From the NCBI GenBank assembly GCA_963830395.1, contig CAWHMI010000004.1, forward strand, positions 264,980 through 328,979: a stretch of DNA of 64,000 nt, in the 5' to 3' direction. The notes beneath the pieces were generated by a model, which saw only the letters and a program-made list of their open reading frames with translations, was not told the origin of the DNA and searched no databases. The DNA is from an uncultured Actinomycetota bacterium. Lineage in GTDB: Bacteria; Actinomycetota; Thermoleophilia; Solirubrobacterales; Solirubrobacteraceae. The position numbers were made by a program, and so were the translations under genes. This document shows positions 13,442-34,696 of this stretch, piece after piece (the stretch's first letter is position 1; each line of letters begins with the position of its first letter).

Positions 13442-14671
13442 GTGGGGAGTGAGTCCGTACTCTCGTTGGCCGCACCGCGGGTGGCGCTGGTCCACGACTT
13501 TCTGCTGGACATGCGCGGCGCCGAGCGGGTGTTCGCGGAATTGTGCGAGATGTGGCCGGACGCCGACATCTTCACCGCGGTCTACGACGAGGACGGCACC
13601 GACGGGCGCTTCGCCGATCGCCACGTGATCACCTCGTTTTTGCAGCGCCTGCGGCCGTCGGCGCGGACGTTCCGCGCGCTGCTGCCGCTGTACCCGGCGG
13701 CGGTCGAGTCGTTTGACCTGTCGGGCTATGACCTGGTGATCTCGAGCTCGTCGGCGTGGGCCCATGCGGTGCTCTGCCACGAGCACACCATCCACGTCAG
13801 CTACTGCCACAACCCGTTTCGCTACGCCTGGAACGATCGCGACAGCACGCTGGCGCGGCGCCGCAATCCGATCACCCGCGAAGCCCTGCGCGTCACGTTT
13901 CGCCGCTGGCGCCAATGGGACTGGCTCGCTGCTCAGCGCACCAACCGCTACGTCGCCAACTCCAGCCTCACCCAGGCACGGATCCGCGCCTACTTCGGGC
14001 GCGAGGCGGCAATCGTCCACCCCCCGGTGCAGACCGCCCGGTTCGCGCCCGGCCCGGTCGGGGACTACTACGTGGCGGTTGCCGAGCTGATGCCTCACAA
14101 GCAGCTCGACGTCGCGATCGAGGCCTTCAATTCGCTGTCGCTTCCGCTGGTGGTCATCGGCGACGGTCCCGATCGTCGCCGGCTGCGGCGGATTGCCGGG
14201 CCGTCGATCAGCTTCGCCGGGCGTCTGGGCGACGCCGCGGTAGCGCAAGCGCTGCAGGGGGCGCGGGCGCTGGTCCTGACCTCGGTGGAGGAGTTCGGAA
14301 TCGTCGCCGTCGAGAGCCAGGCGGCGGGTCGTCCGGTGATCGCCCGAGCCGGCGGGGGGGCGCTGGAGACGATCGTCGACGGCGCCACCGGCAAGCTGTG
14401 GTCCGGCGGTCCCCTCGAGCTGGCGGCGGCGGTTCTGGCGTTCGATGAGTCCGCCGTCGATCCGCAGGCGTGCGTGCGCCAAGCCGCTCGCTTTGACTCG
14501 GGCAGCTTCCGCCGCGGCATGGAGCGCGAGGTCGCCGCCGGGTCGGCCGGCGATACACGTCCGCTGGGTGCGCTTCGCCCGCCGCCCGATGCGGGGCCGG
14601 GGGAAGGTGTCGGTCAGCCGCTCGCCTCCACCCGCCTGGTCGAGCGGGCGGCCAGAGACGCACCCCGCTGA
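13442..14671 (+). CDS. GT4-family glycosyltransferase
   Basis: VALVHDFLLDMRGAERV, ISSSSAWAH, EEFGIVAVESQAAGRPVIA. Confidence 0.92.
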   Translation: MGSESVLSLAAPRVALVHDFLLDMRGAERVFAELCEMWPDADIFTAVYDEDGTDGRFADRHVITSFLQRLRPSARTFRALLPLYPAAVESFDLSGYDLVISSSSAWAHAVLCHEHTIHVSYCHNPFRYAWNDRDSTLARRRNPITREALRVTFRRWRQWDWLAAQRTNRYVANSSLTQARIRAYFGREAAIVHPPVQTARFAPGPVGDYYVAVAELMPHKQLDVAIEAFNSLSLPLVVIGDGPDRRRLRRIAGPSISFAGRLGDAAVAQALQGARALVLTSVEEFGIVAVESQAAGRPVIARAGGGALETIVDGATGKLWSGGPLELAAAVLAFDESAVDPQACVRQAARFDSGSFRRGMEREVAAGSAGDTRPLGALRPPPDAGPGEGVGQPLASTRLVERAARDAPR

Positions 14672-14672
14672 G

Positions 14673-16250
14673 GTGAGCGCGGCAACCGGCGCACGATCGG
14701 ACGCGCGCGTCCGCCGAGCGGTCGTCGCCATCGTCGCCGGCGTCCTGCTGGCGGGACCGACGGCGTTGGCATTCTTCACCGGTGGCTACTTCGCCGGGCC
14801 ACGCGCCTGGGCAGGGCTCGGCGCCTGGCTGCTGGTTGCGGTCGCCGCCGTGGTCGTCCCCGGCGCGTTGCCGCGCGACCGCGTGGCCGGGCTGGCGATC
14901 GGGGGGCTGGCCGGGCTGGCGGCCTGGACCCTGCTGTCGATGCTGTGGGCGCCGATCACCGGCGAGGCCTACCACGCGGGACAGATCGTGATGCTCTACC
15001 TCGGCGCGTTGATCGCCGCCTCGATGCTGCTCGGCGGATCGCCGGCGCAGCGTTGGGTCGAGCCGGCGCTGGCGGCGGGCGCGCTGGTGGTGGTCGGCTA
15101 CGGGCTGTCGGAGCGGCTGTTGCCCGGTCTCTTGACGTTCGCCCGCTCGGTCAGCGCTGAGGGGCGACTCGAGCAGCCGCTCACGTACTGGAACGCGATG
15201 GGCGAGCTGGCCGCGATCGGATTTGTCCTGTGTGCTCGGCTGGCTGGTGACCCGGACCGGCCGGGGGAGCTGCGCGGCGCCGCCGCCGGGGCGGCCGCGC
15301 CACTCGGGCTGGGGTTGTACATCTCGTTCAGCCGAGGAGCGTTGTTCGCCTGCGTGGCCGGGCTGATCGCCCTGATCGTGCTCGCGCCGCGCCGCGAGCA
15401 GCTCGCCGGCGGGCTGGTCTCGGTGGCTGCCGGCGTGCTCACCGCCGCGGCGGCGGCGCCGTCGGGTCCGGTCACCGGTCTCTCCGGATCGCTGGCGACG
15501 CGTGAGCGTGACGGCGCCATCACCCTGGCGCTGCTGGTGATCATCGGCCTGGCCGCGGCGGCGGCGGCGCGCCGGCTCGCCGAGCGCGGTCCGACCGGCC
15601 GGTTGCGCGTGCCCCGCCGTGCCCCCCTGATCGCCGCCGGGGTGGTGTGTGCCGGCTTGGCCGGGGCGATCGTGCTCGGCGCCAAGGAGACCAGCGCCGC
15701 GTCGCCCTCGCTGTCGGGCGGTGCCACCCGCCTGGTCACGCTGCAGAGCAACCGCTACGCCTACTGGGACGTCGCGCTCCGCGCGTTTGCCTCCTCGCCG
15801 CTGCACGGGGTGGGAGCCGGCGGGTGGAGCGTGGAGTGGCTGCGCTGGCGCACGGTGAGCGAGTTCGCGCAGGACGCCCACTCGCTGGAGCTGCAGACGC
15901 TGGCCGAGCTGGGCGTGGTCGGGATCGCGCTGCTGCTGGCGTGCTTCGGCGGCATCGCGATCGCCGCTCGCCGGGCGCTGGCCGCGACGCCCGCCGCCGC
16001 CGGGCCGATCGCCGCGCTGGTGGTGTACCTCGCCCACAGCCCGCTGGACTGGGACTGGCAGATGCCGGCGGTGACGCTGGTGGCGGTCCTGCTGGCGGGG
16101 ATGGTGCTGGCGCTGTCCGAGGTGCCGGCCGCCGACGGCCGGCGGTCGGCTGCCCCGGAGGCCGGCCCCGATGGCGCTACAGCTCCTCGGCGATCCGCGG
16201 CGCCTCGCGGTGAAAGATCCACACCCCCATCACGCCCAGCACGATCATGA
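14673..16250 (+). CDS. O-antigen ligase-like (Wzy_C/WaaL/WsaB-type) membrane protein
   Basis: Multi-TM; RLEQPLTYWNAMG, SNRYAYWDVAL, PLHGVGAGG and DAHSLELQTLAELG motifs. Confidence 0.85.
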   Translation: MSAATGARSDARVRRAVVAIVAGVLLAGPTALAFFTGGYFAGPRAWAGLGAWLLVAVAAVVVPGALPRDRVAGLAIGGLAGLAAWTLLSMLWAPITGEAYHAGQIVMLYLGALIAASMLLGGSPAQRWVEPALAAGALVVVGYGLSERLLPGLLTFARSVSAEGRLEQPLTYWNAMGELAAIGFVLCARLAGDPDRPGELRGAAAGAAAPLGLGLYISFSRGALFACVAGLIALIVLAPRREQLAGGLVSVAAGVLTAAAAAPSGPVTGLSGSLATRERDGAITLALLVIIGLAAAAAARRLAERGPTGRLRVPRRAPLIAAGVVCAGLAGAIVLGAKETSAASPSLSGGATRLVTLQSNRYAYWDVALRAFASSPLHGVGAGGWSVEWLRWRTVSEFAQDAHSLELQTLAELGVVGIALLLACFGGIAIAARRALAATPAAAGPIAALVVYLAHSPLDWDWQMPAVTLVAVLLAGMVLALSEVPAADGRRSAAPEAGPDGATAPRRSAAPRGERSTPPSRPARS

Positions 16251-17073
16251 TCGCGACCGCGATGATCAGATGCAGCGTGCCGCCCCCGGCCACGGTGCCC
16301 GGATAGGGCGCGCTCGGGTCGATGATCCAGACGCGCGCCAGCTCCAGGATCGGCGTGAACGGGTTCAGCGAGATGAGCTGGCCGAGGGTGTGGGAGCGCT
16401 GTACCGCGATCTCGAGCGGGAACAGGATCGGGGTCGCGTAGAACAGCGCGGTCGTGAGCACCGACCAGATGATCCCGAGGTCCCGGAAGCGCGGATACAG
16501 GGAGGAGACGATCATCGCGACCGCAAGCGTGAGCGCGAACAGCATCGCGACGATCACCGGCAACAGCAGCCACGTCCACATCGGGCCGATGCCGAAGGCC
16601 AGGATGAAGATGAACACGATGACCAGGTTCAGCAACAGGTTGAACAGCGCAGTCATGACCACCGCCATCGGGATCGCAAGGCGAGGGAACTGGGTCTTGC
16701 GCACGATTGCCTCCTGGCTGACGATCGACGGCACCGCCAACGTGCTGGCCTCGGTGAAGAAGCCGAACAGGACCATGTTGAGGAGCAGGAACACCGGATA
16801 GTGGGGAACCTGGGAGCCGAGCCGGATCACGTGAGTGAACACCTCGACGAGCACGGCGAACAGGAGCAGCGGGCGGGCCACCGACCAGAGGTAGCCGAGC
16901 GCGGTGCCGAAGTAGGTGCGCTTGAACTCGGTGCTCGCCAGCAGCAGCGTCAGCTCCCAGAAGCGCCCCAGGCCGCCGCTCACCGCCGAGGGCCCGCTGA
17001 CGTCGCGCAGCTCGGGGCTCGCCGACTCGGTGCTGAGGTCGCGCAACGCGGGGCTCACCGACTCGGTGCTCAC
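16177..17073 (-). CDS. wzm: Polysaccharide ABC exporter permease
   Basis: EFKRTYFGTALGYLWS, LFYATPILFP and LNPFTPILE ABC-2 motifs; 36-bp x2 repeat at the N-terminus. Confidence 0.92.
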   Translation of the reverse strand: MSTESVSPALRDLSTESASPELRDVSGPSAVSGGLGRFWELTLLLASTEFKRTYFGTALGYLWSVARPLLLFAVLVEVFTHVIRLGSQVPHYPVFLLLNMVLFGFFTEASTLAVPSIVSQEAIVRKTQFPRLAIPMAVVMTALFNLLLNLVIVFIFILAFGIGPMWTWLLLPVIVAMLFALTLAVAMIVSSLYPRFRDLGIIWSVLTTALFYATPILFPLEIAVQRSHTLGQLISLNPFTPILELARVWIIDPSAPYPGTVAGGGTLHLIIAVAIMIVLGVMGVWIFHREAPRIAEEL

Positions 17074-18383
17074 GTCGCGACGGCTCCGTCCTGCACGGCG
17101 GCATCGACCCTGGCCCGGACCATCACCATCCCCGGCACGGGATCGCGGCCCTTGACCAGGAACTCGGCCACGCGCAGGTCACGCAATGCGTCGTCGCCCT
17201 TCTCCCGGCTGCGCGACATCGAGCACAGCAATGAATAGCGTCCGGGCACCAGGGCGCTATCGACGGCGCCCGAGAGCCGCACCCGCTGGCCGCTCCGCAG
17301 CGGTATGGGCATACCGTCGTCGCTCTCCAGGGCCTTCCCGAAGCCCAGCACCGAGACATCCTCCACGTTGAGCAGCTCCAACGCGATCGCCGGCGCGGGC
17401 AGATGGGCGCGCGCCTCCACCACCACGTTGACGCGAAAGCCTTCGCCCTGCTCGAGATCTTGCAGGCGGCGGCCGCGCGGATCCTCGAGCCAGGCGTCGA
17501 CGACGGCCACGTCGGGGCCGGAGCCGTCGGTTGCGCCGGGGTCGTGCGCGCCGGCGAAGTTGAGTCGGTAGTAGCGCAGGGCGGCTTCTTCGGGGTCTCC
17601 GAGGTAGCGTTGCTCGCCGTCGTGGATCAGCATCGCGCGGTCGCAGAAGGCCTGGACGGTGGCCATGTCGTGGGTGACGAGGACCAGTGTCTTGCCGGCG
17701 TCGCGTTTGTCTCTGAACACGTCGGTGCATTTCTGGGCAAACGCGGCGTCTCCGACGGCCAGGACTTCGTCGACGAGCATGATGTCGGCGTCGGCTCCGA
17801 CCATGACCGCGAACGCGAGGCGGACCATCATGCCTGAGGAGTAGTTCTTGAGCTTGAGGTCGACAAATCCGGTCAGCTCGGCGAAGTCCAGCACGGCGTC
17901 CAGGCGGCGGCGCGCTTCGCGGCGGCCCAGGCCCATCATCACCCCGTTGAGCTCGACGTTCTCGCGGGCGGTCAGCTCGGGGTTAAACCCGACGCCGAGC
18001 TCGATGAACGGGGCCAGGCGTCCGGCGATGCGGATGCGTCCTGCGTCGGCGCGGTAGATGCTGGCCAGGACCTTGAGCAGGGTGCTCTTGCCCGATCCGT
18101 TGCGGCCCACGATCCCGAAGAACTCCCCGCGGTGCACGGTGAAGTCGATCCCCCGTAGGGCGCGCAGCTGCCGGTAGGAAACCCGCCGTAGCGGATGCGC
18201 GGCGCGTTCCTTGAGCGTGTCGACCTTCTGCTCGGGAATCTGGAACGTCTTGCGCAGGCCGACGACGTCGATCACCGCCGGGCCCTCCTGGATCCGCTCG
18301 CGGGTCGCCGCGCGCTCGGCCAGGAGCCCGTCGTCGCTGAGCCCGAAGGCGGCTCGCTGGAGCGAGTGCTGCAGCGTGCGCAT
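17070..18383 (-). CDS. wzt: Polysaccharide ABC exporter ATPase with C-terminal Wzt_C-like domain (copy 1)
   Basis: GRNGSGKST, NYSSGM, LVDEVLAVGD, LVTHD; beta-rich C-terminal domain. Confidence 0.92.
   Translation of the reverse strand: MRTLQHSLQRAAFGLSDDGLLAERAATRERIQEGPAVIDVVGLRKTFQIPEQKVDTLKERAAHPLRRVSYRQLRALRGIDFTVHRGEFFGIVGRNGSGKSTLLKVLASIYRADAGRIRIAGRLAPFIELGVGFNPELTARENVELNGVMMGLGRREARRRLDAVLDFAELTGFVDLKLKNYSSGMMVRLAFAVMVGADADIMLVDEVLAVGDAAFAQKCTDVFRDKRDAGKTLVLVTHDMATVQAFCDRAMLIHDGEQRYLGDPEEAALRYYRLNFAGAHDPGATDGSGPDVAVVDAWLEDPRGRRLQDLEQGEGFRVNVVVEARAHLPAPAIALELLNVEDVSVLGFGKALESDDGMPIPLRSGQRVRLSGAVDSALVPGRYSLLCSMSRSREKGDDALRDLRVAEFLVKGRDPVPGMVMVRARVDAAVQDGAVAT
17523..18281. repeat. 759-bp direct repeat, copy A (wzt ATPase core)
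   Basis: Matches 21460-22218 (offset 3937) with no mismatch found by eye. Confidence 0.92.
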
Positions 18384-19471
18384 CAGGGTCGGCGGGCTCG
18401 CCGGGTCCAAGCCCGGGCCCGCGCCCACGGGCTGCCGCGCAGCGTGCCGAGCTCTGCCTCGAGCCCCCTCAAGCGCTCACGCAGCGTGCCGAGCTCTGCC
18501 TCCAGCTGCAGCTCGCGGTCGGTGGGCATCGCCACCGGGGTCCCGGTGAACGCGGTCCTGTCGGTGCTGCCGCCGACCGTCTGCGCGAGCACGCCCGTCG
18601 GGGCCTCGGGGCCTGCAGGGGAGGTCTCGCGACGCCAGCGAACGGCGTTGAAGTCGATGCCCACGATCGGCTCCGAGATCGCTTGCTCGCGGCGGAAGTC
18701 GTCCACCGCCCGGCGGCAGCCATCCAGGAACAGGTAGTCGTCGAGCACCACGTAGCCGCCCACGGCCAGGCCCGGGTACAGCGCCTCCAAGGTCAGACGG
18801 GTGGCCTTGTAGGTGTCGCCGTCGAGGCGGATCAGCGACCAGGTACGGCCCTGGAGCTCGGCCATCGTTTCCTCGAAGAACCCGGGCACGAACCGCACCC
18901 CGTCCAGGCAGCCGAGGCGATCGAAGTGCCCGCGGACCTGCTCCAGGCTGGGGGCCAGGTACTCGAGTCCCCGCATCTCGGTCTCGAGCTCGATGTCGGC
19001 GCGGTCGCCGTCCGCCTCGGGCGTGGGGAAGCCCTTGAAGGAATCGGCCACCCACACGGTGCGCTCGGTCGCGCCGAGAACGTTGAGCGTGGCCCGCATC
19101 AGAATCGAGGAGCCTCCCCGCCAGGCGCCGGCCTCGATCAGGTCGCCGTCGATCCCGTTGCGCACCACCGTCTCGACACAGGCCTGGAGGTCGTCGAGCC
19201 GCCGCAGCCCGGTCATGGTCAGCGCGTTGAGCGGCCAGTCGCGTCCGGTGGCCCGCCACTGGAGCTGGTCGGCGCCATGCAGATCCCGGGAGAACACGCG
19301 CCGCTCGCCGCTCCAGCTCACGGTGCGAGTGCCGGCGCCGGCCAGGTCGCACAACGACAGCTTCAGCAGGCCCAGATAAGCATCGCGCAGGCCGCCCGGA
19401 TCTTGGCCGGGCGCAGGCGCCCGGATCTCGCGCGCCGGAACCTCCTGGGCTTTCTCTGCCACCGGGGGCAT
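18383..19471 (-). CDS. TylF/MycF-family O-methyltransferase (copy 1) with C-terminal coiled coil
   Basis: GDLIEAGAWRGGSS, VADSFKGFP, FVPGFFEETM, IRLDGDTY, VLDDY. Confidence 0.9.
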   Translation of the reverse strand: MPPVAEKAQEVPAREIRAPAPGQDPGGLRDAYLGLLKLSLCDLAGAGTRTVSWSGERRVFSRDLHGADQLQWRATGRDWPLNALTMTGLRRLDDLQACVETVVRNGIDGDLIEAGAWRGGSSILMRATLNVLGATERTVWVADSFKGFPTPEADGDRADIELETEMRGLEYLAPSLEQVRGHFDRLGCLDGVRFVPGFFEETMAELQGRTWSLIRLDGDTYKATRLTLEALYPGLAVGGYVVLDDYLFLDGCRRAVDDFRREQAISEPIVGIDFNAVRWRRETSPAGPEAPTGVLAQTVGGSTDRTAFTGTPVAMPTDRELQLEAELGTLRERLRGLEAELGTLRGSPWARARAWTRRARRP

Positions 19472-19521
19472 TGAAGCGTACCGCGACCGCCGGTGGATCA
19501 CCCCGTGGAGCCCCGGCGAGG

Positions 19522-20994
19522 CTAGAAGCGGGCTCGCCACCGGCGCAGGCGCTCCTGGCTGAATCCGCGCGGGCCGGGAAAGCCTGCGTTCAGCCGCCGG
19601 CGCGAGGCGTAAGCGCTGCGGCGGGCAACACGGGCCACCGTCCATTTCCAGATCAGGCCGCGGGCCAGGCCGGCCTCGGTACCGAGCGTCTCGGTGTGGC
19701 CGAGCAGCCCGCGCAGCGGCCGCAGCGCCAGCCAGGCGAAGGCCCGCGGATCATGGGCGCTGGCCAGATAGCACTGCAGGGCGCGGCGCTTGCCCGGCGT
19801 CAGCCGGTCCCCGCAGCGAACCAGGAGGGCGATCGCCTGGGCCTCGCCAGCCAGGTACCCATAGAAGTAGGCCGCCCGCCAGCGCTCGGCGAGGCGTGGC
19901 CAGGCGCGCAGGCGCCGGCGCAGGTCGGCGCGGCGGCTGCCGTGGGTGACGTCGCCGAACACCGCCCGCGAGTGCTGGACGTAGTCGTACAGTGGCTCGG
20001 GCACGAAGGCCACGTCGCCGGCGGCGAGCCCGACCAGCCCCAGCCAGTGATCGTGAAACTGAAAGCCCGGCGTGTCGGGGAACGGGAGGGCCAGCTCGAT
20101 TACCGCTCGGCGAAACAGGCAGGCCGCGCCGGTGATCGTGTTGGCCACCAGCATCGAGGCCAGGTTGCGGTGATTGTTGCGTCGCCCCCGCCACAGCGTG
20201 CTGCGCAGCACGACGCCGTCCCCGTCGGTCAGCCGCATGTCGGAATAGACCATTCCGGCGGTCCCCAGCGAGCGCCGCAGCGTGCTCAGCTTGGCCGGGT
20301 GCCAGCGGTCGTCCTGGTCTGAGAGGGCGATGAGCGACGCCTGCGGGGGCGCCAGGGCCAGCGCGCGCTCGAAGTTGCGGTAGAAGCCCAGGTGAACCTC
20401 CGAGCGCGACACCGCGAAGCGAGGGTCGTCCCCGACCGCGGCGCGGACGGCGGCATAGCCCTCCGGCGAGGAGCAGTCGTCGCTGATCAGGCAGATCCAG
20501 CCCTGATCGTCCTGCGCGCGCAGCGAATCGAGCTGAATGCTCAGCAGCTTCGGGTCGGGGTCGAACGTGGCCAGGCACACCGCGATCAACTCCGGCTCGC
20601 CATCGACCGGCCGAGCCGTGGTCTGCGGTGTGGCCTCGCGGCCGACGACGGCGATCTCCCCCAGCGGCGCGCACAGCTCTGCGCCCCCGGCGAGCGTCAC
20701 CGCCACGCCGATGCTGACCGTCCCCGGCCCCGCGCGCGGTGCAATCGGCACCGTGCCCCAGAAGCCGCTGAGGTAGCGATGTTGGCGGGGATCGATGGTG
20801 GCCGGTCGTCGGGTCAGATCGGCGCGCGGCATGGCGAACGCGTCAGGGGCGTGGCGGCGCCCGTCGGCCACCAGCTCGAGTCCGGTCACGACCGCCTCGG
20901 TGTGGTAGCAGTGCCCCAGGCAGAGGACGGCCGAACCAGTGCCGGTCGGCAGCGCGGCCGGCAGCGGCCGCTCCAATGCGGCGACGAGCCCCAC
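19522..20994 (-). CDS. GT2 glycosyltransferase with uncharacterised N-terminal domain
   Basis: VCLATFDP, ISDDCS, NFERAL, LSDQDDRW, FHDHW. Confidence 0.88.
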   Translation of the reverse strand: MGLVAALERPLPAALPTGTGSAVLCLGHCYHTEAVVTGLELVADGRRHAPDAFAMPRADLTRRPATIDPRQHRYLSGFWGTVPIAPRAGPGTVSIGVAVTLAGGAELCAPLGEIAVVGREATPQTTARPVDGEPELIAVCLATFDPDPKLLSIQLDSLRAQDDQGWICLISDDCSSPEGYAAVRAAVGDDPRFAVSRSEVHLGFYRNFERALALAPPQASLIALSDQDDRWHPAKLSTLRRSLGTAGMVYSDMRLTDGDGVVLRSTLWRGRRNNHRNLASMLVANTITGAACLFRRAVIELALPFPDTPGFQFHDHWLGLVGLAAGDVAFVPEPLYDYVQHSRAVFGDVTHGSRRADLRRRLRAWPRLAERWRAAYFYGYLAGEAQAIALLVRCGDRLTPGKRRALQCYLASAHDPRAFAWLALRPLRGLLGHTETLGTEAGLARGLIWKWTVARVARRSAYASRRRLNAGFPGPRGFSQERLRRWRARF

Positions 20995-22260
20995 TTAGCG
21001 GTCGGCGCCCGGCGCGAGCACGGATATCTCCACGTCGCCGCTCATGGCCACGTTGCCCGCGCTCGGGTTGGTGCCGAAGACGAAGAAGTCGAGCAGGCGG
21101 ACGATGTGGATCGCCATCCCTCCCTCGTCGCGACTGCGGGAGATCCAGCACTCCAGCGCATAGCGCCCCGGCACCAGGGGGTTGTCGATCTCGGCCGTGA
21201 TGCGGATCCGCTCGCCGGTGCGCAGCCGCGCCGGCAGCCCGTCCGGCGCCTGCACCGCCTTGTCGAAGGCGAACACCCAGTTGCCGTCCATGTTCAGGCA
21301 GTGGAAGTTGAACACGGGCGCGTTCATCTCCTGCCGCCCCTCGGCCACGAGGTTGAAGCTGAACACTCGACCCTGCTCGAGGTTCTCCACCCGAGTGCCG
21401 GACTCGTCGGCCAGCCACACGTCGAGCAGGGTGACGTTGACGTCGGGCACCGACACCGGGCCGTCGGTTGCGCCGGGGTCGTGCGCGCCGGCGAAGTTGA
21501 GTCGGTAGTAGCGCAGGGCGGCTTCTTCGGGGTCTCCGAGGTAGCGTTGCTCGCCGTCGTGGATCAGCATCGCGCGGTCGCAGAAGGCCTGGACGGTGGC
21601 CATGTCGTGGGTGACGAGGACCAGTGTCTTGCCGGCGTCGCGTTTGTCTCTGAACACGTCGGTGCATTTCTGGGCAAACGCGGCGTCTCCGACGGCCAGG
21701 ACTTCGTCGACGAGCATGATGTCGGCGTCGGCTCCGACCATGACCGCGAACGCGAGGCGGACCATCATGCCTGAGGAGTAGTTCTTGAGCTTGAGGTCGA
21801 CAAATCCGGTCAGCTCGGCGAAGTCCAGCACGGCGTCCAGGCGGCGGCGCGCTTCGCGGCGGCCCAGGCCCATCATCACCCCGTTGAGCTCGACGTTCTC
21901 GCGGGCGGTCAGCTCGGGGTTAAACCCGACGCCGAGCTCGATGAACGGGGCCAGGCGTCCGGCGATGCGGATGCGTCCTGCGTCGGCGCGGTAGATGCTG
22001 GCCAGGACCTTGAGCAGGGTGCTCTTGCCCGATCCGTTGCGGCCCACGATCCCGAAGAACTCCCCGCGGTGCACGGTGAAGTCGATCCCCCGTAGGGCGC
22101 GCAGCTGCCGGTAGGAAACCCGCCGTAGCGGATGCGCGGCGCGTTCCTTGAGCGTGTCGACCTTCTGCTCGGGAATCTGGAACGTCTTGCGCAGGCCGAC
22201 GACGTCGATCACCGCCGGCGCCTGGTGCAGCCGCGCGCGCCGCGCGTCGCTACCCGCCAT
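20995..22260 (-). CDS. wzt: Polysaccharide ABC exporter ATPase with C-terminal Wzt_C-like domain (copy 2)
   Basis: Same NBD as copy 1 with a different C-terminal domain. Confidence 0.92.
   Translation of the reverse strand: MAGSDARRARLHQAPAVIDVVGLRKTFQIPEQKVDTLKERAAHPLRRVSYRQLRALRGIDFTVHRGEFFGIVGRNGSGKSTLLKVLASIYRADAGRIRIAGRLAPFIELGVGFNPELTARENVELNGVMMGLGRREARRRLDAVLDFAELTGFVDLKLKNYSSGMMVRLAFAVMVGADADIMLVDEVLAVGDAAFAQKCTDVFRDKRDAGKTLVLVTHDMATVQAFCDRAMLIHDGEQRYLGDPEEAALRYYRLNFAGAHDPGATDGPVSVPDVNVTLLDVWLADESGTRVENLEQGRVFSFNLVAEGRQEMNAPVFNFHCLNMDGNWVFAFDKAVQAPDGLPARLRTGERIRITAEIDNPLVPGRYALECWISRSRDEGGMAIHIVRLLDFFVFGTNPSAGNVAMSGDVEISVLAPGADR
21460..22218. repeat. 759-bp direct repeat, copy B
   Basis: Matches 17523-18281. 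Confidence 0.92.
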
Positions 22261-22353
22261 GGAAGCCGTGGCCGCGCCGCTTGCGCGGCCGGGCTGCAGT
22301 TGTCCGCCGTTGGACGCCCATTCGCCAACGTTACCCAGGCCCCGCCGCGAGCC

Positions 22354-23259
22354 CTAACGCTTCCGGCGCTCCAGGTAGCGGCCGACGCTCCGCAGGGGGG
22401 CGGTCAGCCGCCAGCCGATGCTCTTGGTCATGATCGCCATCTCGCGCCGGTGGGCGGCCATCCCGGCGGCGGCCTTGAGCCCGGTCGAGAGCGCGACGCC
22501 GCGCGTGATCGCCGCCTCGGCCTCGGCCCGGCGGGCGCGGTGCTTCCAGCTGCCACCGGCGAACCCCACTCCGGGCATCCGCCCGTCCCACTTCTCCGCC
22601 ACCGCGACGTACGCCTCGGACCAATGCTCCAGATCGGAGGCCAGCCGCAGCGAGTGGTTGTGGATGACCTTGAAGTCGGCGGTCACGATCTTGCGCCCGC
22701 GCTCGCGGACCTGCAGGCAGAAGTCGAAGTCGTAGCCGTGCAGCAGCTGCCCCAGGGACTCGTCGAAGCGCACGTTGGCCACCGTCCACGGCGACAGCGC
22801 CAGGACGAAGCCGTCGACGGTGTCGACCTCGCCGAGCTGGGCGTAGGGAGGGATGCGGGCCTCGTCCCAGGTCAGCGAGGGAAAGTCGCCGCCCCCGAGC
22901 TCGCCGTAACGGTGGATGAACGAGGCCCAGGTGACCGAGCCCTCCCACCAGGCGATCGAGCGCACGCCGAGCGACCCGACGCACCCCACGACCCCGACCT
23001 GGGGATCGGCGAGCGCCTGGCGCAGCTTGACGCAGAAGCGATCGTCGACGATCTCCGAGTCCTGGTGCAGCAGGACCAGGGCCTCGAGCCCGTCGATCGC
23101 GGCGGTCCGGTCGAGGATCGCGTTGTAGTTGTGAAAGATCGAGCCGTCCGCCGGATGCGCGATCACTGCCGAATCGGGTTCCGCGGCGGTGGCTATGCCC
23201 GGCGCGGCGCACCTTAAGTAGGTGTCCCGGGAGGTGACGGCCGAGGCGAAGACGATCAT
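22354..23259 (-). CDS. Glycosyltransferase-like family protein (GT-A, Glyco_tranf_2_5-like)
   Basis: SIFHNYN, LLHQDSEI, GVVGCVG, VDTVDGFVL, RFDE, LHGYDFDFCLQ. Confidence 0.8.
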   Translation of the reverse strand: MIVFASAVTSRDTYLRCAAPGIATAAEPDSAVIAHPADGSIFHNYNAILDRTAAIDGLEALVLLHQDSEIVDDRFCVKLRQALADPQVGVVGCVGSLGVRSIAWWEGSVTWASFIHRYGELGGGDFPSLTWDEARIPPYAQLGEVDTVDGFVLALSPWTVANVRFDESLGQLLHGYDFDFCLQVRERGRKIVTADFKVIHNHSLRLASDLEHWSEAYVAVAEKWDGRMPGVGFAGGSWKHRARRAEAEAAITRGVALSTGLKAAAGMAAHRREMAIMTKSIGWRLTAPLRSVGRYLERRKR

Positions 23260-23375: not shown

Positions 23376-24305
23376 ATGATCGCCTTCGGCTGCTCGATCA
23401 TCACCCCGGATGCTTACGTACGCTGGGCCAAGCCGGGGCTCGAGCGGGCCGCCGAGCCCGACTCGGTGGTGATGGCGCACTCGGCCTTGGGGTCGGTGGC
23501 GCGCGGCTACAACCTGCTGCTCGACCGGGCGGCCGGGCTTGACCGGCTGGAGGCGCTGGTGATCGTGCACGAGGACGCCGAGCTGCTCGACGCCGACTTC
23601 TGCTCCCGGATGCGCTCGGCATTGGCCGATCCCGAGGTCGCCCTGGTCGGATGCGTCGGCGCGACCGGCGTTCGTGACATCGCCTGGTGGGACGGGTCGG
23701 TCACCTGGAGCTCGGCGGTCTATCACCCCGGCGATCCGGGCAGGAGCGAGCTGGCCTTCACCAACCGGCCCGGGCCCCACGCCGTGGGCGATGTCGACAG
23801 CCTCTACGGAGTGCTGCTGGCCTTCTCGCCATGGGCGGTTCGCAACTTGCGCTTCGACGAGTCGATCGGGCCGCTACACGGTTATGACTTCGATATCTGT
23901 CGCCAGGCCCGCCGCGCCGGGCGCAAGGTCCGCACGGCGGACCTGAACGTCGCCCATCATCACCCGCTCGATCTCGTGCGGGACATCGAGATCTGGGTCG
24001 CGGCCCACATGCGAGGAGCCGAGCTGTGGGACTCGAAGGCTCCGGGCGACGGGGCGCCGGACGCGGAGTGGAAGCCCCGGGCACGGGCCGCCGAGGCCGC
24101 GGCGGCCGCCGCGCGGCTGCTCGCTGCCGCGCGGTTGCTCGAGGTCCAGGCCTCCGATGAGCACAACGCCGCCGAGCGCCGGGGCGTGCTGGAAAGCCGG
24201 AGCTGGCGGGTGACTGAGCCGCTGCGGCGCGGCAACGCGGTCCTGAGGACCGCGCGGGGCCGCCTGCGACGCTCGCGCGTTACCCGGTGGGCGGGTCCTC
24301 GCTGA
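23376..24305 (+). CDS. Glycosyltransferase-like family protein (paralog of 22354..23259)
   Basis: VARGYN, IVHEDAEL, LVGCVG, RFDESIGPLHGYDFDIC. Confidence 0.8.
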   Translation: MIAFGCSIITPDAYVRWAKPGLERAAEPDSVVMAHSALGSVARGYNLLLDRAAGLDRLEALVIVHEDAELLDADFCSRMRSALADPEVALVGCVGATGVRDIAWWDGSVTWSSAVYHPGDPGRSELAFTNRPGPHAVGDVDSLYGVLLAFSPWAVRNLRFDESIGPLHGYDFDICRQARRAGRKVRTADLNVAHHHPLDLVRDIEIWVAAHMRGAELWDSKAPGDGAPDAEWKPRARAAEAAAAAARLLAAARLLEVQASDEHNAAERRGVLESRSWRVTEPLRRGNAVLRTARGRLRRSRVTRWAGPR

Positions 24306-25344
24306 GGGCCCGCTGGACCTCGGCCCGGGTGACGGCCATCTCCGCGGGAGCGATTCCCACCCGGCGGCGCAGCTCGGAGAGCTTCTCGGCCACCCGGAAC
24401 GCGCTCGAGGTCAGCAGCCGGCGCAGCAGGGCCTCCTGGCGTCCGAGCCGCTCGTGGGCCGCCGCCACCTCCATCAGCTGCACGTGCATCGAAGCCAGGT
24501 GGTAGGCACGGTTGGCCTCCAGCCGCGCGATCACCGGATGACGATCCAGCGGGCCGAGAAGCTCTGCGAGCCGCCCGGCATAAGGCGCGTCCGCGTGCCA
24601 GACGACGCCGAGCCCGAAGAACGAGGGCATGATTGCCAGGCGGAGCTTGGCGTCGTCGGCGACAAAGTCCTCGACCGCCGTCAGGACGCCGTTGCGTGGC
24701 CCGCCCTCGCGCACCGCTGGCCACTTGTAAGGCAGCCCCCCGGGCCGAGGCTCGGCCACGCCGGGGAACAGCCCGCCCCCCTCCACGGTGGTCTGCCGGT
24801 ACTCGTCGGGGATCCGGTCGGGAGCGAAGTAGTCGTCGCGCCGGGCGTGTGGCCAGCCGACGTCGTGGAAGATGAGCAGCGGCGTCTGGCCGCGGCGCGT
24901 GACCAGTTCGATCTCGTTGGAGACCGTGTAGTAGTTGTGATCGCCGTCGATCACGTACGCGTCGGCCGGTTCGAGCTCGCGTAGCGCCTCGTGGCTGGTG
25001 GTCTGCAGCAGCGTGAGCTCCGGGCGCTGCTCGCCGAGCGCGACCAGCTCCGGCTGCGGCGAGGGATCCACGGCCCAGATCCTGACGCCGTCCCGGTCGC
25101 TGGCCCAATCGAGCAGGTAGTGGGTGAGGTCGCCCGCATAGGCGCCGACCTCGACCACGGAGCGCGCGTCAGCGGCCGCCAGGCAGGCGAGCATTACCTC
25201 GCCGTTGTTGATCAGCGAGGCTCCCCACTGTCCGGGGTCGCTGGCGAACTCGCAGGCGGGATGAAGCGTCCACGGCAGCTCGCCCTGCTGCAGCGCCCGC
25301 ACGACCCCCTCCGCGCTGAGGTTGAGTTGCACTCTGGCCACCAA
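24280..25344 (-). CDS. Class I SAM methyltransferase (Methyltransf_24-like)
   Basis: VVEVGAYAG, IDGDHNYYTV and FHDVGWP motifs. Confidence 0.85.
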   Translation of the reverse strand: MVARVQLNLSAEGVVRALQQGELPWTLHPACEFASDPGQWGASLINNGEVMLACLAAADARSVVEVGAYAGDLTHYLLDWASDRDGVRIWAVDPSPQPELVALGEQRPELTLLQTTSHEALRELEPADAYVIDGDHNYYTVSNEIELVTRRGQTPLLIFHDVGWPHARRDDYFAPDRIPDEYRQTTVEGGGLFPGVAEPRPGGLPYKWPAVREGGPRNGVLTAVEDFVADDAKLRLAIMPSFFGLGVVWHADAPYAGRLAELLGPLDRHPVIARLEANRAYHLASMHVQLMEVAAAHERLGRQEALLRRLLTSSAFRVAEKLSELRRRVGIAPAEMAVTRAEVQRALSEDPPTG

Positions 25345-25439: not shown

Positions 25440-26531
25440 ATGCCGCAGATGTTCCCCTTCACAGGTCAAGAATCCGGCTCGCCGTGGCGTGCCCACCCGC
25501 CGGGGCGTGATGCCGAGAGCCTGCGCCGGGCCTACCTGGCGCTGCTGAAGCTGAGCCTGTGCGATCTGACCGGGGCCAGCACGCGCGAGGTGCGATGGAC
25601 CTCGGACAAGCGCGTCTTCTCGCGGACGCTGACCGACGCCCAGCAGCTGCGCCATCGCGCCGAGGGCAAGGACTGGCCGCTGGACGGCCTGACGATGGTG
25701 GGGCTGCGCCGGCTCGAAGACCTCCAGGCGTGCGTCGAGTCGATCGTCGCCGACGGCGTGCCCGGCGACCTGATCGAGGCCGGTGCGTGGCGGGGCGGGG
25801 CCTCGATCCTGATCCGGGCCACGCTGGATGGCCTCGGCGCGCGGGATCGGACCCTGTGGGTGGCCGACTCCTTCCAGGGCTTTCCGGCGCCCGACGGCGC
25901 CGGCTCGGCGGCCGATCAAGCGCTCGAGGCCGACCTGAGCCGCGTCGGCTTTCTGGCGCCGCCGCTGGACAGCGTCGCCGAGCACTTCGCCCGCTTCGGC
26001 GTGGCCGAGGGGGTGGAGTTCGTGCCCGGCTTCTTCGAGGAGACGATGGCTTCCCTGCGGGGCCGTACCTGGTCGCTGGTGCGGCTCGACGCCGACACGT
26101 ATCGCGCGACCCGGGTCGTGCTCGACGCGCTGTACCCGGGACTGGAGGCCGGCGGCTACCTGATCGTCGACGACTACTTCCATCCATATCTGCCGGAGTC
26201 GTGCCGCAGGGCCGTCGATGACTATCGCGCCGAGCATGCGATCAGCGAACCGGTGACGCAGATCGACTGGAACGGCGCCCGCTGGCGCAAGCGCGAGCCC
26301 GCCCAGCCCGCGCCCGAACCGATCGGCGCCCAGGCTCGCGTGCCTGCCGGGCGGCCTCCCGAGCGCCCCGGCACGGCTCCGATCCCCACCGATCGCGAGC
26401 TGCAGCTGCAGGACGAGATCGCGGCGCTGCGAGCGCAGCTCGATGCCACGCAGGCCCAGCTGCGCCGCCGGGATGCCGGCCCCCTGCGCCGGCTGCGGGC
26501 ACGACTCAGGCACTCCGCGGGGGGCGCTTAG
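25440..26531 (+). CDS. TylF/MycF-family O-methyltransferase (copy 2)
   Basis: GDLIEAGAWRGGAS, VADSFQGFP, VRLDADTY, IVDDY. Confidence 0.9.
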   Translation: MPQMFPFTGQESGSPWRAHPPGRDAESLRRAYLALLKLSLCDLTGASTREVRWTSDKRVFSRTLTDAQQLRHRAEGKDWPLDGLTMVGLRRLEDLQACVESIVADGVPGDLIEAGAWRGGASILIRATLDGLGARDRTLWVADSFQGFPAPDGAGSAADQALEADLSRVGFLAPPLDSVAEHFARFGVAEGVEFVPGFFEETMASLRGRTWSLVRLDADTYRATRVVLDALYPGLEAGGYLIVDDYFHPYLPESCRRAVDDYRAEHAISEPVTQIDWNGARWRKREPAQPAPEPIGAQARVPAGRPPERPGTAPIPTDRELQLQDEIAALRAQLDATQAQLRRRDAGPLRRLRARLRHSAGGA

Positions 26532-31966: not shown

Positions 31967-34696
31967 ATGCTGCGGGTGACCCTGGACTGCGAGCTCCCGC
32001 CGGAGGTGGCGGTCGGACCCGGCACGGCGGTGTTCGTCTGTGGCTGGTGCTTCTCGCCTCGCGCCCGGATCAGGAAGCTGGAGTTCGTCCTCGACGGCGA
32101 GGCCCAGCCGGTGATGGCGGCCCGGATGCCGCGTCTGGACCCGTTCCGCGAGCTGCACCCGATGGTCGATCCGTTCGCCGCCGCCGCCCTCTCAGAGGAC
32201 CCGGCCTCCGCGGCGGACCCGCGCCTGCTCAGTTACCGCAGCGGGTTCTGGGGGCTGGTGCGCATCCGCGGCCCCCGCGCCCCGGGATACCTGCCGCTGG
32301 CGCTGCGGGCCGAGCTCGAGGACGGCGAGACGGCCGTGGCCCCGCTTGCGCAGCTCCGGGTCGCGGCCGCCATCAAACCGGGCGCCGCCGCGCCGGGCGC
32401 TGGCGCTTGGCCCGCAGACCGAAGCGGGCCTGCGGTCGCGATCTGCTTGGCCACCTTCAACCCGCCCGAGGACCTGCTCCGCCGCCAGCTGGACTCGATC
32501 CGCGAGCAGACGCACGAGAATTGGATCTGCCTGATCAGCGACGACTGCTCGAGGCCCGAGGGTCAGCGCGTGCTGGACGACGCGATCGGCGGCGACGGAC
32601 GCTTCGTCGTCTCCCGCTCGCCGCGGCGCCTCGGCTTCTACGCCAACTTCGAGCGGGCGCTGACGATGGTCCCGGGTGGCGCGGCGCTGGTGGCGCTGTC
32701 CGATCAGGACGACGCCTGGCATCCGGACAAGCTCAGCAGCCTGATCGCCGCGCTCGGCGACGCGCAGCTGGTATACAGCGACGCGCGCGTCGTCTCGCGC
32801 GCCGGCGAGCTGATCTCCGATACCTGGTGGGCGCGACGGCGCAACAACCACGCCGACCTGCTGTCGCTGTTGATGGCCAATGCGGTCACCGGTGCCGCGT
32901 CGCTGTTTCGCTCCGAGCTGCTCGACTACGCGCTGCCGTTCCCGCCGGCCCAGTTCGCCCACTTCCACGACCACTGGCTGGGCCTGGTCGCGCTCGCGGT
33001 GGGGAGTATCTCCTACGTGGACCGTCCGCTGTACGACTACGTCCAGCACGGCGACGCGTCCCTGGGCCACGCCGCCGCCAACCAGATGCCGTCATTGCGT
33101 GAGCGCCTGGCGAGCGGACGCGACCTCGCCGAGCGGGTTCGGCTGTGGCGGATGCACTACTTCGTCGACTTCTGCCGGCTGATCCAGTTCGCCACCGTGC
33201 TGGAGATGCGCTGCGGTGCCCGGATGTCGTCGCGCAAGCGACGCGAGCTCACCGCGTTGCGGCGGGCCGAGCGCTCGGCGCCGGGGCTGGCGCGGTTCGC
33301 GGTGCGCGGCATCCGGGAGCTCGCCGGGACGCCGGAGACGCTGGGGGCCGAATGGCTGCTGCTGCACGCTCTAGCGTGGCGTCGCCTCGTTGCGCTCACC
33401 GCCCGGGATCGGCCCCAGCCGCGGCTGCGTCTCGACGCGCTGCCGCCGCCCACGCTGCTCCAACCTCCCGGTCGGCGCGGACTGCACGAGGCCGCCGCGG
33501 CGATCGCCGACAAGGTCGCGCCGCTGCGCTGGATGCCCGCCCCCGACGTGCCGGCGCGGATCAACATCCTGCTCCCGACGCTCGACCTGCGCCACCTGTT
33601 CGGTGGCTACATCGCCAAGCTCAACCTGGCCCGCCGGCTGACCGAGCTCGGCCACCGGGTGCGGCTGGTGACCGTGGATCCCGTCGGCCCGCTGGCGTTC
33701 GACTACCGCCGCCAGATCGAGTCCTACCGCGGTCTGGGCGGGCTGTTCGAAACAGTCGAGCTGGCCTTCGGGCGCGAGTCGGCGGGCATCGAGGTGAGCC
33801 CCGCGGACCGCTTCGTGGCCACCACCTGGTGGACGGCGCACGTCGCCCGCGACGCGGTGGCGCTGCTGGGCGGCGGCCGGTTCGCGTACCTGATCCAGGA
33901 ATACGAGCCGTTCACCTTCGCGATGGGCAGCTACGCGGCGCTGGCCGACGAGTCCTACCGGTTTCCGCACGTCGCGCTGTTCTCCAGCGAGCTGCTGCGC
34001 GACTACTTCCGCCGGCACCGGCTCGGCGTCTACAGCGCCGGCGTGGTGGCCGGAGACTCGGCCTCGGCCTCGTTTCAGAACGCCATCACCGCGGTGGCGG
34101 CGCCGTCGGCCGCCGACCTTGATCGGCCGGGGCCGCGCCGGCTGCTGTTCTACGCCCGGCCCGAGGCGCACGCGGCGCGCAACATGTTCGAGCTCGGCGT
34201 GCTGGCGCTGGCCCGGGCGCTCGCCGAAGGGGCGTTTGCTGGCTGGGAGCTGCACGGCATCGGCACCGTCGGGCGGGGCGGTGACGTCTCGCTCGGCGCC
34301 GGTCGCGCGCTGACGCTGCTGCCCCGCACCGATCAGGCGGCCTACGCCCGCCTGCTGCGCGAGCACGACGTCGGGCTGGCGCTGATGTACACACCGCATC
34401 CCAGCCTGGTGCCGATCGAGATGGCCTGCGCCGGAATGCTCACCGTGACCAGCAGCTTCGAGAACAAGACGCCGGAGGCGATGGCGGCGATCTCGGGCAA
34501 TCTGATCGTCGCCGAGGCGGGCGTGGAGTCGCTGGCCGTTGCGCTGCGCGAGGCCGCGGCGGGCGCCGGCGACCTGCAGCGCCGGGCCGCCGGCAGCCGG
34601 GTCAGCTGGAGCAGCGACTGGCGGACCTCGCTGCCCGACGAGCTGCTCCAGCGACTGATGGCGTCGCTGACATCGAACGACGCCGCGGCGGCGTGA
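31967..34696 (+). CDS. GT2 + WsaF-like (rhamnosyltransferase-type) fusion glycosyltransferase
   Basis: GT2 motifs (ICLATFNP, LSDQDD, FHDHW) followed by GGYIAKLNLA, VATTWWTA, YLIQEYEP, LFYARPE and MYTPHPSLVPIEMA, resembling WsaF. Confidence 0.82.
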   Translation: MLRVTLDCELPPEVAVGPGTAVFVCGWCFSPRARIRKLEFVLDGEAQPVMAARMPRLDPFRELHPMVDPFAAAALSEDPASAADPRLLSYRSGFWGLVRIRGPRAPGYLPLALRAELEDGETAVAPLAQLRVAAAIKPGAAAPGAGAWPADRSGPAVAICLATFNPPEDLLRRQLDSIREQTHENWICLISDDCSRPEGQRVLDDAIGGDGRFVVSRSPRRLGFYANFERALTMVPGGAALVALSDQDDAWHPDKLSSLIAALGDAQLVYSDARVVSRAGELISDTWWARRRNNHADLLSLLMANAVTGAASLFRSELLDYALPFPPAQFAHFHDHWLGLVALAVGSISYVDRPLYDYVQHGDASLGHAAANQMPSLRERLASGRDLAERVRLWRMHYFVDFCRLIQFATVLEMRCGARMSSRKRRELTALRRAERSAPGLARFAVRGIRELAGTPETLGAEWLLLHALAWRRLVALTARDRPQPRLRLDALPPPTLLQPPGRRGLHEAAAAIADKVAPLRWMPAPDVPARINILLPTLDLRHLFGGYIAKLNLARRLTELGHRVRLVTVDPVGPLAFDYRRQIESYRGLGGLFETVELAFGRESAGIEVSPADRFVATTWWTAHVARDAVALLGGGRFAYLIQEYEPFTFAMGSYAALADESYRFPHVALFSSELLRDYFRRHRLGVYSAGVVAGDSASASFQNAITAVAAPSAADLDRPGPRRLLFYARPEAHAARNMFELGVLALARALAEGAFAGWELHGIGTVGRGGDVSLGAGRALTLLPRTDQAAYARLLREHDVGLALMYTPHPSLVPIEMACAGMLTVTSSFENKTPEAMAAISGNLIVAEAGVESLAVALREAAAGAGDLQRRAAGSRVSWSSDWRTSLPDELLQRLMASLTSNDAAAA

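Follow-up and report, generated by a model that had tools for sequence, protein, structure and literature searches.

The window analysed here is a stretch of 64,000 nucleotides (nt) from an uncultured Solirubrobacteraceae bacterium (contig CAWHMI010000004.1, positions 264,980-328,979; G+C approximately 71%). It includes two wzt genes, each encoding an ATPase domain joined to a C-terminal carbohydrate-binding domain, and a single wzm gene for the partner permease. The two ATPase domains are encoded by an exact repeat while the two binding domains are different. Comparison with related genomes strongly supports domain-restricted concerted evolution of these genes by recurrent gene conversion between the two direct repeats. 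Our best explanation, in which we have moderate confidence, is that one Wzm channel together with two Wzt proteins (same motor, different binding domains) would constitute a cap-dependent exporter of the Wzm/Wzt type, in which the one channel exports two glycan forms.

The repeat and the two wzt genes

A base-by-base self-comparison at an offset of 3937 shows that positions 17523-18281 and 21460-22218 are identical over 759 base pairs (bp), with 0 mismatches. The initial annotation had reported this identity and its abrupt end at the boundaries of the nucleotide-binding domain, and alignment of the copies bears out both. On the 3' (C-terminal-coding) side, below 17523/21460, identity drops to background at once; above 18281/22218 there are approximately 40 partly similar nt before background identity is reached. 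The repeat encodes 253 amino acids (aa; 'PAVIDVV...AHDPGATDG') and the WztA and WztB translations differ on both sides of it, including in their N-terminal tails. The genes and domains concerned are listed below, where wztB is the upstream or 'u' copy and wztA the wzm-proximal, downstream or 'd' copy (ORF, open reading frame).

16177..17073, minus strand: wzm (ABC2_membrane, 47.4 bits, E 2e-12), the only ABC-2 permease gene found
17070..18383, minus strand: wztA, the 'd' copy, with a probable ATG start at 18383 (the longest ORF, 17070-18428, begins at GTG 18428)
17073..17522, minus strand: WztA carbohydrate-binding domain (d-type), from an AlphaFold2 model and PDB matches; a member of the d clade
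17523..18281, minus strand: repeat copy A, the ATPase domain of wztA (exact repeat, ABC_tran)
20995..22260, minus strand: wztB, the 'u' copy, 421 aa (ORF, translation, Wzt_C)
20998..21459, minus strand: WztB carbohydrate-binding domain (u-type; Wzt_C), whose nearest relatives are the upstream-copy domains of other genomes
21460..22218, minus strand: repeat copy B, the ATPase domain of wztB from gate helix to linker (100% identical to copy A; ABC_tran; Aquifex 8dku)

Both copies contain ABC_tran (Pfam, E 1e-20), and the best PDB sequence match of the ATPase copies is full-length Aquifex aeolicus Wzt (8dku/7k2t, E 3e-59, residues 32-387). The gate helix reads 'VDTLKER' in both window copies and aligns with 'DRLKE' around Arg20 of the Aquifex protein. 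The C-terminal domains, each of approximately 150 aa, are 40% identical as proteins (E 5e-40). With a Pfam cutoff of 30.4 bits, Wzt_C is detected above threshold in WztB (46.1 bits) and just under it in WztA (29.0 bits). The AlphaFold2 model of the d-type domain is nevertheless a beta-sandwich (predicted local distance difference test score, pLDDT, 82.8). Every one of its 17 best PDB matches is a Wzt carbohydrate-binding domain (Aquifex 8dky and 6o14, Raoultella O12 5hno and E. coli O9a 2r5o) and the database relatives of the WztA domain carry PF14524. From the model and these relatives, the C-terminal region of WztA is identified as a Wzt_C jelly-roll domain despite its score. An identical ATPase core, different carbohydrate-binding modules and one wzm, as originally described, are thus all found in the window.

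Chance identity over 759 bp can be excluded. The C-terminal coding parts that adjoin the repeat have a proportion of synonymous differences (pS) of 0.49, and paralogous ATPase domains that have not been homogenised in relatives are approximately 75% identical.

Assemblies typically go wrong at exact repeats of this length (through repeat collapse, consensus polishing or misjoins), and contigs of short-read metagenome-assembled genomes (MAGs) do break there. Read-level data consist of Logan contigs from two soil metagenome runs, in which approximately 65-70% of the locus words are present. Contigs cross three of the four borders (17522/17523, 18281/18282 and 21459/21460) with 0-4 mismatches and the contig graph forks at 21460 into both C-terminal flanks. 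Word depth inside the repeat is 1.6-2.1 times that of the flanks, and no variant is reported within the repeat in the Logan contigs of the two runs. The fourth border, 22218/22219, and the 250 nt beyond it are uncovered in both soil runs, a point in favour of an artefact, and 22240-22475 is likewise without coverage; the strains in these runs probably differ from the window upstream of wztB. However, 22 independent genomes, most of them assembled from long reads, have the same architecture, and in each the identical core is specific to the species. In the soil contigs, which come from other runs, the repeat is connected with either binding-domain flank at approximately twofold depth and without variants. 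We therefore reject an assembly artefact, which is very unlikely and close to refuted.

In one run (X3), an abundant contig (depth 29) links position 17499, on the WztA-domain side, to the WztB-type linker at 21433, with 8 extra letters and in frame. This joint was considered as a deletion junction and rejected, since it probably comes from a related strain in which the linker is different and the conversion tract has another end point.

Short-read assemblies of relatives (loci L078-L090; proteins P0001-P0011) break inside the 3' end of the ATPase repeat. In the protein database the d-type domain is mostly found in 'partial' proteins of 143-205 aa. Because assemblies break at the repeat, databases hold mostly partial d-type Wzt proteins and the second wzt is missed.

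Comparison with related genomes

A scan with one genome per species gave 77 loci, all from Thermoleophilia-type MAGs (one contig lies within a MAG labelled Planctomycetota). In 28 of these loci, from 25 distinct genomes and not counting the window, two wzt genes are followed by one wzm; the remainder have the order GT2-wzt-wzm, with a single wzt referred to here as the 's' type. The initial annotation had recommended a survey of relatives for dual wzt genes, and such relatives evidently exist in number. Only one wzm match is found in the window and in every related locus, the count covering the 64 kb and these loci. The best identity to WztB among the relatives is 83%, and these relatives assign the window to the Solirubrobacterales within the class Thermoleophilia.

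Within a genome, the DNA of the two ATPase domains is 90-98% identical in 25 of the 28 loci, compared with 52-76% for the C-terminal domains. Neighbour-joining trees were constructed separately for the two domains. In the ATPase tree, the two copies from a single genome pair as sister tips in the window and in 22 of the 25 relatives. In the C-terminal tree, all 26 wzm-proximal domains form one pure clade and the u domains group with the single-wzt type. The nearest neighbours of the C-terminal domains are always position-matched, and their mean identities are 47.7% (s-u), 41.4% (s-d) and 40.4% (u-d).

The 23 homogenised genomes (22 relatives and the window) share a core of 528 nt, in which the paralogues have a total of 24 mismatches (0.2%). 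Between genomes, divergence of the same core has a median of 18.8% and a minimum of 6.2%; the pS between orthologues in the ATPase domain is 0.22-0.55. Such a difference between the within-genome and between-genome values, together with the pure d clade, argues for recurrent conversion acting over an old duplication. On these sequence comparisons, the wzt duplication is shown to be old and common to a Solirubrobacterales clade, the d-type binding domain having arisen once. The earlier proposal that the motors are kept homogeneous by gene conversion is therefore strongly supported by the 25 related two-wzt genomes.

The window alone could be read in another way: a recent wzt duplication followed by a swap of one C-terminal domain, with no ongoing conversion. 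This would need to have recurred independently in more than 20 species, each time yielding the same pair of orthologous binding-domain types in an unchanged gene order, and the mosaic edges of the window repeat (see below) also favour conversion. The domain trees refute a recent duplication and we attach almost no probability to it.

The part of the ATPase domain that has been homogenised repeatedly comprises approximately 530-660 nt. Within the 759-nt frame, mismatches between paralogues occur only near the two ends, in the initial 66-130 nt and the final 33-70 nt. The 16 homogenised relatives tabulated have identical runs of 210-660 nt, compared with 759 nt in the window, the longest seen. 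Tract ends vary between genomes, with the gate helix as the usual limit at one end and the hinge helix or linker at the other. At the 5' edge (gate helix), upstream copies keep 'VDTLKER' and the downstream copies of most genomes are divergent. At the 3' edge, which corresponds to the hinge helix and linker, 'EA[T/V]LRYY' and a linker of the 'AHDPG.TDG' type are frequent in downstream copies. The window goes furthest of all, in that both of its copies are mosaics with an upstream-type gate helix and a downstream-type linker. Since both types are combined in one tract, the window repeat requires a minimum of two conversion events, with opposite donors.

In the Aquifex transporter, the gate helix is located at the entrance to the channel, where it is believed to bind the lipid-linked head group (PMC6379404). 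A tyrosine of the hinge helix contributes to the glycan pocket, along with the binding domain of its own chain (PMC9445017). Given these roles, it is the elements attached to substrate recognition that stay copy-specific in most species, with the motor core being shared.

Homogenisation might also have no adaptive meaning. Nearby direct repeats would simply recombine often, tract ends would be set where divergence blocks extension of the heteroduplex, and the second Wzt would be redundant or drifting. Three loci (L048, L051 and L064) are relevant here. They have the same two domain types and one wzm, but their ATPase domains are approximately 26% diverged (pS 0.42-0.59, longest identical run 24-32 nt). 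These lineages persist unhomogenised and with the same gene order, so homogenisation is not needed for a two-Wzt system to persist; evidently, conversion stops once divergence is high. The variation in tract ends and the upstream copy of L069, which seems degraded, point in the same direction. However, both binding-domain types are intact across approximately 25 species and the d-type is kept as one clade. The ratio of non-synonymous to synonymous change (dN/dS) is 0.13-0.44 for both types, which are kept by purifying selection. Neutral conversion and a functional second specificity are in any case mutually compatible. We consider homogenisation without adaptive meaning to be possible, although well short of probable.

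A fused or truncated copy or an in-frame stop is present in L069 (7286-9922), L019 (12933-13670) and L011 (near 12907). These may reflect decay or Nanopore indel errors. In addition, three MAGs include two or three contigs with a near-identical dual locus (99.6-100%; L012/L013, L030/L032 and L018/L019/L067). These are probably strain mixtures in the bin rather than amplifications.

The wztB-wzm operon and the proposed export of two glycan forms

Three other genes are involved in the arrangement of the locus:

22354..23259, minus strand: Glyco_tranf_2_5 glycosyltransferase upstream of wztB, from which it is separated by a 93-nt intergenic gap
19522..20994, minus strand: GT2 glycosyltransferase between the wzt genes (Glycos_transf_2)
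18383..19501, minus strand: TylF-family O-methyltransferase between GT2 and wztA (TylF, E 2e-72; start GTG 19501 or ATG 19471)

Along the direction of transcription (minus strand) the order is Glyco_tranf_2_5, the 93-nt gap, wztB, GT2, TylF, wztA and wzm. The single wzm and the single minus-strand run were correctly noted at the outset; the layout has been amended in that wzm lies downstream of wztA and the glycosyltransferase at 22354-23259 lies beyond wztB. The TAA stop of wztB directly abuts the GTG start of GT2, the TylF stop overlaps the probable wztA start in the sequence TGATG (wztA most probably starts at ATG 18383), and the wztA stop overlaps the GTG start of wzm in the sequence GTGA. 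These junctions indicate that the genes from wztB to wzm form one operon, predicted to be translationally coupled. A scan of 15.5-24.5 kb for promoters and terminators gave nothing above shuffled expectation. The position of GT2 directly upstream of the wzm-proximal wzt is conserved in single and dual loci, and TylF occurs between the wzt copies only in the window and in its closest relative, L001. Most relatives have a class-I methyltransferase gene of approximately 1.1 kb between the glycosyltransferase and the upstream wzt (for example, L001 8936-9865).

In the explanation that we favour, both Wzt proteins would dock on the same Wzm dimer because their identical motors are interchangeable at the Wzm interface. 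The subunits would be equivalent at this and at the ATPase-dimer interface, and conversion would spread motor changes co-adapted to Wzm into both copies. Each binding domain would admit a glycan with a different non-reducing terminus, and the single channel would export two glycan forms made by the same large cluster. The transporter could be assembled as AA and BB homodimers or as an AB heterodimer. In Aquifex, the two binding domains of the dimer are not engaged simultaneously (PMC9445017), so either mode would work.

The two types of binding domain differ at positions that align with the Aquifex glycan pocket (residues taken from PMC9445017; the alignment to Aquifex has only 15-18% identity). 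The position of Leu300 is His in u and s and Glu in d, that of Ala348 is Trp in u and s and Ser in d, and that of Asn313 is Ser, Asp or Asn in u and s and Gly in d. No column is both at least 80% conserved within each group and different between groups; differences are found only at lower thresholds and at the pocket-aligned positions.

The surroundings of the loci also differ. At least two Glyco_tranf_2_5 genes are present within 10 kb upstream in 20 of 24 two-wzt loci compared with 6 of 34 single-wzt loci (Fisher p 7e-7, with kinship ignored). TylF, in contrast, is rarer near two-wzt loci (8/24, compared with 24/34 for single loci). We considered the TylF gene between the copies as a general second capping enzyme and rejected it on these grounds and because of its restriction to the window and L001. 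The extra glycosyltransferase, by adding a sugar, would be a likelier source of a second terminus, if one exists, than methylation by TylF. The candidate capping enzymes in the cluster are two TylF proteins, a Methyltransf_24 protein and this extra glycosyltransferase. From their presence and from the purifying selection on both types, the window binding domains are predicted to recognise caps. The original idea that one channel serves two differently capped glycans remains inferential. It has gained the purifying selection, the changes in pocket residues and the second Glyco_tranf_2_5 gene, and has lost the TylF methyl cap as a general explanation.

Several points weigh against export of two glycan forms. 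The argument for two termini is built on sequence comparison, the pocket mapping on a distant alignment to Aquifex and the glycosyltransferase association on counts with no correction for phylogeny, while two-wzt loci show no enrichment of TylF. The analysis covers 64 kb of the genome, and there may be another wzm elsewhere. Finally, the three unhomogenised lineages show that identity of the motors is not required for function and that it may be a neutral by-product of recombination.

It is also conceivable, but rather unlikely, that the system is an obligate heterodimer: a single species, WztA-WztB-Wzm2, in which the d-type subunit is a specialised partner (with an asymmetric binding-domain dimer and, in most species, a non-canonical gate helix) and does not select a second glycan. 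Wherever it occurs, the gene pair shares one operon, with translational coupling and a single wzm. The DxLKE gate-helix motif, retained in Aquifex and in the upstream copy, has disappeared from the downstream copy of most relatives, and the solved Wzt binding domains are strand-swapped dimers in which one protomer binds glycan at a time (PMC9445017). All of this would suit an obligate heterodimer. Against this, the downstream copy of the window has a canonical gate helix, so that no such asymmetry exists here, and the single-wzt relatives work with a homodimer.

A different role for the repeat would be that of a genetic switch. Recombination between long direct repeats is standard behaviour, and the window has perfect 759-bp direct repeats at a spacing of 3937 bp. 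The segment comprising the WztB domain, GT2 and TylF would be deleted or amplified in a RecA-dependent manner, which would alter the surface glycan in subpopulations, and excision or amplification of this 3.9-kb segment is mechanistically possible. A scan for the pattern of a d-type-only alignment gave 20 loci, all from Thermoleophilia. All 13 long-read loci are dual, so that the expected deletion product, a d-type domain with no upstream copy, is not fixed in any of these 13. The seven short-read d-type contigs all begin no more than approximately 170 nt inside the ATPase domain. Logan short contigs can neither span the 759-bp repeat nor reveal rare junctions. Loss of GT2 would probably be deleterious, since all loci have kept this gene beside wzt. 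We regard a switch as improbable.

In a wider version of our favoured explanation, which we offer tentatively and with less than even confidence, the locus would be a modular exporter found across a soil-actinobacterial clade. One Wzm and one ATPase sequence maintained by conversion would serve two exchangeable domains for cap reading, and two different termini might be read by an AB heterodimer. Selection would act on the conversion tract itself, matching the motor to the permease and protecting the gate helix, hinge helix and binding domain as specificity elements.

The glycan cluster and comparable systems

The wztB-wzm operon is housed in a glycan cluster of approximately 25 kb (11.1-35.7 kb). 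Its other features include:

14445..16250, plus strand: Wzy_C (O-antigen-ligase-like) membrane protein, 601 aa, adjoining wzm (the synteny is the same in L078)
23376..24305, plus strand: second Glyco_tranf_2_5 glycosyltransferase, divergently oriented and 48% identical to the first
24280..25344, minus strand: Methyltransf_24 methyltransferase (Pfam)
25440..26531, plus strand: second TylF-family methyltransferase, 58% identical to the first
31967-34696: GT2 fused to WsaF N- and C-terminal domains, 909 aa

The cluster also includes a GT4+GT2 fusion, a GT4 gene, two class-I methyltransferases, a PMT_2 protein and more GT2 genes. The Wzy_C protein is a probable candidate for the step of transfer to the acceptor. 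Besides wzt, there are two pairs of paralogues, the two Glyco_tranf_2_5 and the two TylF genes, and the former pair (48%) accounts for an inverted repeat (22745-22833 / 23787-23875). Two shorter tandem repeats were also observed. One is a tandem duplication of 36 nt (16996-17067; 89% identity) at the 5' end of wzm, through which a motif of 12 aa is repeated at the N-terminus ('TESVSPALRDLS / TESASPELRDVS'). The other, a tandem repeat of 42 nt at the 3' end of TylF (18421-18504), encodes 'LEAELGTLRERLRG / LEAELGTLRGS', a short tail that resembles a coiled coil. The capping enzyme WbdD has a coiled-coil ruler, which this tail recalls at a much smaller scale.

Individually, the components are standard parts of the cap-dependent Wzm/Wzt O-antigen exporters of E. 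coli O9a/O8, Raoultella terrigena O12 and Aquifex aeolicus (PDB 2r5o, 5hno and 8dku; PMC9445017, PMC6379404). As in these systems, there is an ABC-2 permease, an ATPase with a gate helix, a hinge helix and a C-terminal jelly-roll domain, and a cluster with methyltransferases and glycosyltransferases. The motor and binding domain are modular, and those of E. coli function even in trans, according to work cited in PMC9445017. The window differs from the known exporters in having two Wzt proteins with different binding domains and one Wzm in one operon, with motors made identical by conversion, and the Aquifex cap-pocket residues are not conserved in the window domains. Moreover, since this is an actinobacterium of the Gram-positive type, its product is not a lipopolysaccharide (LPS) O antigen.

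The S-layer glycan (slg) cluster of Geobacillus stearothermophilus NRS 2004/3a encodes Wzm, Wzt, the rhamnosyltransferase WsaF and a Wzy_C-type transferase, WsaB, for a glycan with a methyl cap. The window similarly has wzm, wzt, a glycosyltransferase with WsaF domains (31967-34696), a Wzy_C protein (14445-16250) and several methyltransferases. Unlike the window, the slg cluster includes just one wzt.

Among bacterial paralogues, concerted evolution through conversion is known for tufA/tufB and for Helicobacter babA/babB, in which the ends are homogenised and the binding region is divergent. As in these cases, the wzt paralogues of one genome are closer to each other than to their orthologues, and conversion affects part of the gene and leaves the ligand-binding part distinct. 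Here, however, the converted part is the motor of an ABC transporter fitting one shared permease, and the phenomenon extends over more than 20 species with three natural escape lineages.

Two wzt genes with one wzm have been annotated in the type B O-antigen cluster of Burkholderia pseudomallei (PMC3541218) and in Massilia violaceinigra (PMC9834719). As described, these resemble the window in having two wzt homologues and a single wzm in one polysaccharide cluster; they are annotation remarks only, with no analysis of domain identity, conversion or function. Our literature searches on two Wzt proteins, wzt paralogues and gene conversion in ABC ATPase domains returned only such remarks, and no description of homogenised Wzt motors with distinct binding domains was found.

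These loci constitute a natural domain-swap experiment in which the motor is held constant and the reader is varied in more than 20 species, with the three escape lineages as controls. They resemble the laboratory domain swaps that defined the reading of glycan caps by Wzt, and raise a number of questions that can be tested: whether one Wzm serves two readers, whether Wzt binding domains form heterodimers and whether the gate and hinge helices are functionally part of the reader. They also provide a clean bacterial case of domain-limited concerted evolution. For metagenomics they are a warning, since short-read MAGs break at the repeat and the second wzt is systematically lost or partial. Finally, they give a glimpse of the cell-surface glycans of the Thermoleophilia, which are essentially uncharacterised.

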